From NCBI RefSeq assembly GCF_003334305.1, contig NZ_QOWS01000084.1: a stretch of DNA of 338 bases; one strand, written 5' to 3'. The notes beneath the pieces are model-generated. The model did not search any database and was not told the origin of the DNA. It worked only from the letters and a program-made list of their open reading frames with translations. Origin of the DNA: Escherichia coli (lineage in GTDB: Bacteria; Pseudomonadota; Gammaproteobacteria; Enterobacterales; Enterobacteriaceae). Position 1 is the stretch's first letter. Each line of letters starts with the position of its first letter. The position numbers and the translations under genes are program-made. Below, piece after piece: positions 1 through 338 of the stretch.

Positions 1-338
1 GTCTCCCGCCCCTGCGCATCCTTCTGACTGACCAGTTGCCCACGCGGGTTATAACTGCTGTAAGTGCTGATGCCTTCTTCCCGGTGAACGGCGATTTGTT
101 GACCGTACCGGTCATACTCATACCGCGTCGTGTACCCCGAGCAGTCCGTGAAGGCCAGCAGCTGACCGTAACGGCTCCATGCCATCTGTTTTGTACTGCC
201 CGTCGCATCCTCTATCCCTGTCGGCAGCTCACTCGCCGGGTCATCATAGCTGTACCGCATCGTCTCACCGCTGCGCGAGGTCTCCGCCGTCAGCCTTCCC
301 TTCTCATCATACTCCCGGCTGCTGCGAAGCCCGTCCGG
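1..338 (-). CDS. Internal fragment of an Rhs-family / YD-repeat protein core (polymorphic toxin scaffold); partial at both ends
   Basis: Minus-strand frame with codons at + 338..3 has no stop in 112 codons; the other two minus frames were not translated. Translation contains the YD-repeat signatures REYDEKGRL, RYSYDDP, RYEYDRYGQQI and YSSYNPRGQL at regular spacing. G-rich coding strand (hand count on + strand: C=123, G=82) and Arg/Gly/Tyr/Asp/Thr-rich composition fit Rhs cores. In-frame ATGs (+ 258-260 and 183-185) are internal Met codons with YD repeats on both sides, not starts. Paralog cannot be assigned from 338 bp, so no gene symbol is given. Confidence 0.9.
30..317 (-). repeat. Five consecutive protein-level YD (RHS) repeat units, period about 63-69 nt
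   Basis: Repeat cores on + strand coordinates (read on minus strand): 288-317 REYDEKGRLT; 222-257 RYSYDDPASELP; 150-179 WSRYGQLLAF (degenerate, W in the aromatic position, no D); 90-125 RYEYDRYGQQIA; 30-65 TYSSYNPRGQLV (N in place of D). Aromatic anchor residues fall at protein positions 10, 31, 54, 75, 96, i.e. spacings of 21, 23, 21, 21 residues. Similarity is at the amino-acid motif level; the nucleotide sequences of the units are divergent. Confidence 0.75.

Follow-up and report, generated by a model that had tools for sequence, protein, structure and literature searches.

An internal segment of an Rhs core gene, very probably rhsG, from the type VI secretion island of Escherichia coli

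In this study, we analyzed a stretch of Escherichia coli DNA of 338 nucleotides (nt) from contig NZ_QOWS01000084.1 (assembly GCF_003334305.1), hereafter called the window, which lies inside the coding sequence of an Rhs (YD-repeat) core protein. The window has a GC content of 60.7%. In a six-frame translation, minus frame 1 was stop-free across 112 codons (window 3–338) and gave the peptide PDGLRSSREYDEKGRLTAETSRSGETMRYSYDDPASELPTGIEDATGSTKQMAWSRYGQLLAFTDCSGYTTRYEYDRYGQQIAVHREEGISTYSSYNPRGQLVSQKDAQGRE, which has 112 amino acids (aa), begins with PDGLRSSREYDEKGRL and ends with QKDAQGRE. An earlier note on this DNA had described one minus-strand frame open over the whole window, and both the frame and the peptide quoted there were obtained again. 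The three motifs that it had singled out are all present in the translation: REYDEKGRL (peptide aa 8–16, window 291–317), RYSYDDP (aa 28–34, window 237–257), and RYEYDRYGQ (aa 72–80, window 99–125). Repeat parsing divides the peptide into five YD units of 21–23 aa and the beginning of a sixth. The features are as follows.

1–338, minus strand: internal segment of an rhs (rhsG-type) core coding sequence; the complete codons, 338 to 3, correspond to aa 489–600 of a Rhs protein of 1,409–1,411 aa.
270–338, minus strand: YD-repeat unit 1 (PDGLRSSREYDEKGRLTAETSRS), holding REYDEKGRL; from repeat parsing and a Pfam RHS_repeat match at aa 10–49.
201–269, minus strand: YD-repeat unit 2 (GETMRYSYDDPASELPTGIEDAT), holding RYSYDDP; from repeat parsing, Pfam and NCBIfam.
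138–200, minus strand: YD-repeat unit 3 (GSTKQMAWSRYGQLLAFTDCS), degenerate; from repeat parsing, with a Pfam RHS_repeat match at aa 55–89 that covers units 3 and 4.
75–137, minus strand: YD-repeat unit 4 (GYTTRYEYDRYGQQIAVHREE), holding RYEYDRYGQ; from repeat parsing and Pfam.
12–74, minus strand: YD-repeat unit 5 (GISTYSSYNPRGQLVSQKDAQ); from repeat parsing, with a partial third Pfam RHS_repeat match at aa 96–111.
11–3, minus strand: start of YD-repeat unit 6 (GRE); from repeat parsing.
2–1, minus strand: first two bases of the codon that follows aa 600.

Tandem Repeats Finder detected no DNA-level tandem repeats in the window, and the repeats therefore exist at the protein level only. No RNA family was found in the window either: Rfam at E ≤ 1 gave only a chance match to sR30, with 12.6 bits where the gathering score is 38.

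The open frame on its own is weak evidence for a gene, because at least one fully open frame was also present in 22% of mononucleotide shuffles of the window and because plus frame 3, a point that the earlier note had not mentioned, is open over the window as well. The decisive evidence is family similarity, which is far beyond chance. The window peptide matches the NCBIfam model RHS_core (NF041261) with E = 2.2e-62 and 211 bits, colinear with profile positions 488–599 of 1261, and the YD-repeat model TIGR01643 in three stretches with E = 1.4e-17 and 63.4 bits (cutoff 15.8). Pfam RHS_repeat (PF05593) matches twice, at 8.7e-08 and 1.7e-06, in addition to the partial third copy. These profile searches bear out the assignment to the Rhs/YD-repeat family that had been made from the letters of the sequence.

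The genomic context of the window was examined with megablast in a set of 5,426 complete genomes of E. coli. The window was matched in 2669 of them; 107 records had at least 99% identity, many of them 100%, and all matching records bear the annotation "RHS element core protein" or "RHS repeat-associated core domain protein". In strain 214-4 (fetched stretch L001), the window occupies 12001–12338 within the coding sequence 10537–14766, that is, nt 1465–1802 of a 4,230-nt open reading frame (ORF) encoding 1,409 aa. On either side of the window the frame runs on, for 1,464 nt in the upstream and for 2,428 nt in the downstream direction, so that it does not close near either edge and the fragment belongs to one long ORF, as had been supposed.

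The whole protein encoded in this 100%-identical context scores 2635 bits against RHS_core over aa 1–1258 (profile positions 1–1261), above the curated equivalog cutoff of 2000 bits, which is set for the whole protein. In Pfam searches, it has a DUF6531 domain at aa 47–123 (E = 5.7e-18), 12 RHS_repeat matches, and PF03527 at aa 1155–1190, and the Rhs-associated core model Rhs_assc_core (TIGR03696) matches aa 1181–1258 with 84.3 bits. The sequences DPIGL and DPLGL stand at aa 1232 and 1254, outside the window, and place the end of the core at aa 1232–1258. The core terminus is followed by a tip of 151–153 aa and then by a small partner ORF, and the prediction of a large Rhs protein with a variable C-terminal domain was thus confirmed. 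The GC content is 61–69% across the core and approximately 36–41% in the tip and the downstream DNA. A GC-rich core, an AT-rich tip and downstream ORF, and a nearby H-repeat (ISAs1) together characterize classic Rhs elements of E. coli, as set out by Jackson et al. (2009, PMC2935791), and an ISAs1 transposase was found downstream in every context whose fetched stretch extended so far.

Every 100%-identical context that was opened represents one chromosomal locus, the island for the T6SS (type VI secretion system) between tRNA-Asp (aspV) and yafV. In this island, tssB, tssC, tssE and tssF lie on one strand, and hcp, vgrG, rhs, a small ORF and ISAs1 (H-repeat) lie on the other. The order hcp-vgrG-rhs-small ORF-ISAs1, with tssB/C/E/F on the opposite strand, was seen in strains 214-4, H15, A7 and EDL933, and the order vgrG-rhs-partner ORF in NDM2; yafV comes next in 214-4 and in records from which the T6SS has been deleted. 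The 100% matches 214-4, H15 and A7 have an intact rhs of 1,409–1,411 aa after vgrG, and H15 has the complete set of 13 tss genes. A close relative in the protein collection carries the name "rhsG core protein with extension". In PMC2935791, rhsGH is the name of a third subfamily in E. coli, the gene downstream of vgrG in the T6SS island has been called rhsG and considered a probable effector (PMC10711316), and the EDL933 rhs is z0268, described as a "PAAR-Rhs" (PMC7216683).

We conclude that the window is very probably an internal coding segment, residues 489–600, of the chromosomal E. coli Rhs protein whose gene directly follows hcp and vgrG in the aspV–yafV T6SS island and is called rhsG in the literature. 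As a piece of DNA, it is an ordinary, textbook Rhs core fragment that is already known and carries this annotation in thousands of E. coli genomes; the earlier note had likewise regarded it as not novel in itself, and its 100% identity to annotated RHS element core genes agrees with this. Its practical use is as a marker for the aspV–yafV T6SS/rhsG locus.

We propose a role for the window in which the repeat shell, the core terminus, the variable tip with its partner ORF and the position next to vgrG are shown by sequence, homology or gene context. By homology, the YD repeats, including those in the window, provide strands of the beta-sheet shell ("cocoon") that the Rhs core builds. The core terminates in the Rhs-associated core domain, which contains the DPxGL sequences, and a variable toxin domain of approximately 150 aa follows it. 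In line with this, solved T6SS Rhs effectors can be aligned over their YD-shell region with the window peptide, at E values from 1.3e-28 to 3.4e-06; E was 1.3e-28 for Tse5 (8cp6) and 3.5e-27 for Pseudomonas protegens RhsA (7q97), and Salmonella bongori Rhs (8qjb-d), Tse15 and Tre23 were aligned as well. By analogy with characterized relatives, the toxin would be encapsulated by the shell, and a core-terminal aspartyl autoprotease would release it inside the shell. The N-terminal PAAR-like/DUF6531 region would dock on the VgrG spike, the T6SS would fire the protein into neighboring cells, and the small downstream ORF would shield sibling cells. Encapsulation, autoproteolytic release, mounting on VgrG, T6SS delivery and the immunity protein have been summarized previously (PMC7216683, PMC9825190). 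Within this scheme, the window is by homology structural shell and has no catalytic or specificity role. The identity of the toxin is not readable from the window, because identical windows stand before at least two different tips. One conserved shell that carries interchangeable toxins is part of the background of interbacterial competition in E. coli.

Several observations weigh against reading the window as part of a complete, deployed effector gene. The N-terminus of the full protein has no Pfam PAAR_motif match at E ≤ 10, DUF6531 alone being reported there, although the literal sequence KPAARQGD occurs at aa 4–11, with PAAR itself at aa 5–8. The steps of encapsulation, autocleavage, secretion and immunity are transferred from homologs and would apply here by analogy. 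At least 6 of the 20 listed 100% matches lie in a 5'-truncated rhs pseudogene fused to a truncated tssM, with the T6SS structural genes deleted; these are Ecol_AZ147, three ST540 assemblies, EcPF16 and KFu022. Strain 214-4 has an intact rhs but a split tssF. That the gene works as a delivered toxin in the source of the window can therefore not be taken for granted.

These truncated loci give rise to the alternative that survives best, namely that the window comes from a degraded locus, a 5'-truncated rhs remnant without the PAAR/DUF6531 N-terminus, vgrG or T6SS, left by a deletion of approximately 20 kb that joined tssM to the rhs core; it would still be Rhs-derived. Deletions mapped against the intact H15 island illustrate the case. 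In ST540 (L002), tssM is joined to rhs nt 616 with the loss of 20,396 bp, in EcPF16 (L005) it is joined to rhs nt 1102 with the loss of 19,818 bp, and the window is 100% identical in both. Junction searches detected the ST540 type in 8 genomes and the EcPF16 type in up to 38, at least 6 of the 20 listed 100% matches have one of the two, and a 21-kb rhsG-tssM deletion has been published for ST410-B (PMC10711316). However, other 100% matches (214-4, H15 and A7) carry the whole gene of 1,409–1,411 aa after vgrG, and three of the six truncated matches are assemblies of one strain. Of the 5,426 genomes searched, no more than 46 have one of the two junction types, a figure that leaves further existing junction types uncounted. 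We consider an origin from such a remnant possible but unlikely. The suggestion in the earlier note of a likely polymorphic-toxin, contact-dependent competition locus stands for the type of locus, because rhs immediately follows hcp and vgrG in the T6SS cluster. It does not stand as an assurance of a working toxin locus: the window marks a locus type rather than a working system, because identical windows occur in truncated remnants. A YD-repeat match in a genome scan should accordingly not be equated with a functional toxin system.

The chance that the real gene lies on the plus strand is negligible. The frame in question is the following feature.

3–338, plus strand: open antisense frame that is no gene; its codons are aligned with those of rhs, and it has no family match.

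No stop interrupts plus frame 3 within the window, and in strain 214-4 an ATG-initiated antisense ORF of 222 aa is present at L001 11989–12657. However, an antisense stop requires TTA, CTA or TCA in the sense strand, because the plus frame is codon-aligned with rhs, and these codons make up only 13 of the 1,258 core codons (1.0%), which gives a probability of 0.31 that the plus frame is open over 112 codons by their scarcity. Gaps of 218–226 codons free of TTA, CTA and TCA occur within the rhs gene, and the rhs core contains many such antisense ORFs. The plus-frame peptide has no NCBIfam match, and a promoter and terminator scan found neither promoter-like nor terminator-like sites in the window. 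The GC content at third codon positions, computed for the minus-strand reading alone, is 71%, as expected of a GC-rich coding frame. The plus-strand frame is an artifact of GC-rich codon usage.

It is just as improbable that the YD repeats belong to another YD-shell family, such as the C subunit of a Tc toxin, a teneurin-like protein or a contact-dependent inhibition toxin of the CdiA type: YD-shell proteins share the repeat, and the full protein also retrieves teneurin-like (1e-22) and YenC2 (5e-06) structures from the PDB, but T6SS Rhs structures match it much better (E = 1e-122 to 1e-43), it scores above the RHS_core equivalog cutoff, and the annotated neighbors are hcp, vgrG and tss genes, with neither TcA/TcB nor CdiB among them. 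Membership of the CdiA/CdiB system was considered separately and rejected; the full protein has no CdiB, filamentous-haemagglutinin or VENN matches in Pfam or NCBIfam, and no cdiB is among the annotated neighbors.

Outside the window, the tips of 151 and 153 aa that follow identical windows are mutually unrelated (BLASTP E = 66). The first, tip A, is found with a Sel1/TPR partner ORF in 376 genomes and is 99.3% identical to the tip of EDL933 z0268. Tip A itself has no Pfam, NCBIfam or PDB sequence match, and a search of PDB sequences with its profile found nothing. A word-indexed homolog search returned 5 close relatives only and was superseded by an exhaustive HMMER search, which collected homologs in 1,363 representative clusters. 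In these proteins it stands mostly at the C-terminus, and some giant proteins hold 4–6 copies of it. In an alignment of 49 diverse homologs, His32, Gly33 and Cys75 are invariant. Tip A has a clan-CD cysteine-protease fold of the C80/CPD-like type, that is, a caspase-hemoglobinase fold with the His-Gly...Cys dyad after consecutive core strands. No significant Pfam clan-CD match was obtained, the 49 homologs giving only sub-threshold matches (DUF4347 in 9, Peptidase_C80 in 4 and C25 in 1; best E = 1.5e-03), and the family is unmodeled by the Pfam clan-CD models. A single-sequence AlphaFold prediction of tip A was unusable (pLDDT 36.6). The findings on tip A agree with an earlier in silico suggestion for z0268 (PMC7216683) and with the work on Tce1/Tce2 (PMC13323088). 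The partner of tip A, a putative immunity protein, contains a variable Gly-Glu run near its N-terminus, with 3 GE in strain 214-4 (169 aa; L001 14835–15344) and 9 GE in EDL933 (181 aa; L009 8820–9365).

The second tip and its partner are located in strain H15 as follows.

L003 11311–11772: tip B (aa 1259–1411 of the H15 rhs product).
L003 11750–12142: partner ORF of tip B.

Among the 5,426 genomes, 1,026 carry this module. A weak Pfam YkuD match (E = 3.4e-05) covers tip aa 34–134 of tip B; the PDB sequence search gave nothing meaningful, and NCBIfam gave nothing. The catalytic motif of L,D-transpeptidases and Tlde1 is HXX14-17-(S/T)HGCh (PMC9638812). The corresponding motif of tip B is H-x18-T-M-G-C-T-R, in which His, Thr, Gly and Cys fit and the second His is replaced by Met. 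Tip B is thus a candidate L,D-transpeptidase-like domain that fits the class in part. Its partner has 130 aa, starts with the lipobox-like sequence LVIGC and is encoded with a 23-nt overlap of the rhs stop; it appears lipoprotein-like, which would suit a periplasmic immunity protein. PADLOC gave no matches for either tip or for the partner ORFs.

Four different deletions, each removing 11.4–20.4 kb of the T6SS, were observed, and their rhs-side ends all fall within 1.1 kb of the rhs core. Besides the ST540 and EcPF16 types, these are the tagH-rhs junctions of two genomes, in which the rhs end lies inside the window at gene-sense nt 100 and 277. The adjacency of rhs to vgrG and hcp is not kept in the deletion derivatives. 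The deletion ends on the H15 island are listed below.

L010 (H15) 16228, 17292, 26195 and 26334: tss-side deletion ends.
L010 (H15) 36625, 37111, 37573 and 37750: rhs-side deletion ends, the last two being window positions 239 and 62.

In three of the four junctions a 2-bp TA microhomology is shared and the flanks are alike, with GCAGG(N)TA at the tss end and TAC at the rhs end. Such a pattern might point to a specific break-and-join mechanism, as opposed to illegitimate recombination at random. That the 5' third of the rhsG core, including the window, is a preferred end-point of recurrent, independent T6SS-inactivating deletions seems to us very doubtful. The sample is small and biased, in that only deletions keeping part of the window are visible. 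A survey of rhs truncations with a 5' query of 1.8 kb was dominated by paralog matches (rhsD, approximately 76%), and junction types were not enumerable from it. Lineages repeatedly lose the secretion machinery yet retain the rhs remnant. In strain 214-4 (L001 1–4187), rhs is intact, and an IS66-family element (ISEc23 with tnpA/tnpB) interrupts tssF; because of this split, the T6SS of 214-4 is probably non-functional, by a different route than deletion. A second rhs copy, frameshifted or N-terminally truncated, is located downstream of ISAs1 in A7 (L004 14480–18139) and EDL933 (L009 11259–12338), and the copy in A7 is accompanied by a ydcD-family ORF. These copies look like orphan rhs fragments within the island.

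The alleles at this locus also differ in a patchwork manner, and one boundary falls in the window.

174–175, no strand: boundary between mosaic (patchwork-recombination) segments relative to other alleles; many megablast matches begin at query nt 165.

The NDM2 allele has 57% identity to the window over gene-sense nt 1–164 and 95% over nt 165–338. In a sliding comparison of the H15 rhs (L010 36010–40245) with the NDM2 rhs (L013 1361–5593), blocks of 150 nt alternate between approximately 59–79% and 95–100% identity. The rhs alleles at the T6SS locus are mosaics, which suggests patchwork recombination between rhs cores.

Among known systems, the closest is the E. coli rhsG type (EDL933 z0268; Hill and co-workers' rhsGH subfamily; Clade I rhs in PMC2935791). 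The window matches annotated genes of this type at this locus with 100% identity. The EDL933 ortholog has 96.7% identity over the window and occupies the same place after hcp-vgrG. The GC-rich core, the AT-rich tip and the downstream ISAs1 (H-repeat) are shared, and there is no difference of substance. RhsA and RhsD of K-12 have the same architecture and are colinear over approximately 1,260 aa, the window corresponding to RhsD aa 484–595 and RhsA aa 480–591. They differ in sequence, the window peptide being 75.9% identical to RhsD and 64.3% identical to RhsA, and because of these values the window protein belongs to neither of the K-12 subfamilies sampled. None of the K-12 rhs genes checked is adjacent to a T6SS cluster. 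K-12 MG1655 lacks the T6SS/rhsG island and has only the yafU/yafF pseudogenes between ykfM and yafV (L008 2747–3379, corresponding to 238746–239378), whereas other strains have approximately 28 kb there.

The solved T6SS Rhs proteins (Pseudomonas aeruginosa Tse5, 8cp6; P. protegens RhsA, 7q97; S. bongori Rhs, 8qja-d; Acinetobacter baumannii Tse15, 8uy4; and Photorhabdus Tre23, 7pq5) have the Rhs-associated core terminus in common with the E. coli protein. They come from other genera and differ in their N-terminal loading domains and tips, and the similarity is confined to the shell and the core terminus. The TcC subunits of Tc toxins and the teneurins have the same type of YD-repeat shell, but the similarity is far weaker (Pfam TEN_YD-shell at E > 2 only). 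They are not linked to a T6SS, and the E. coli rhs, which has no TcA/TcB partners, is not a member of that group.
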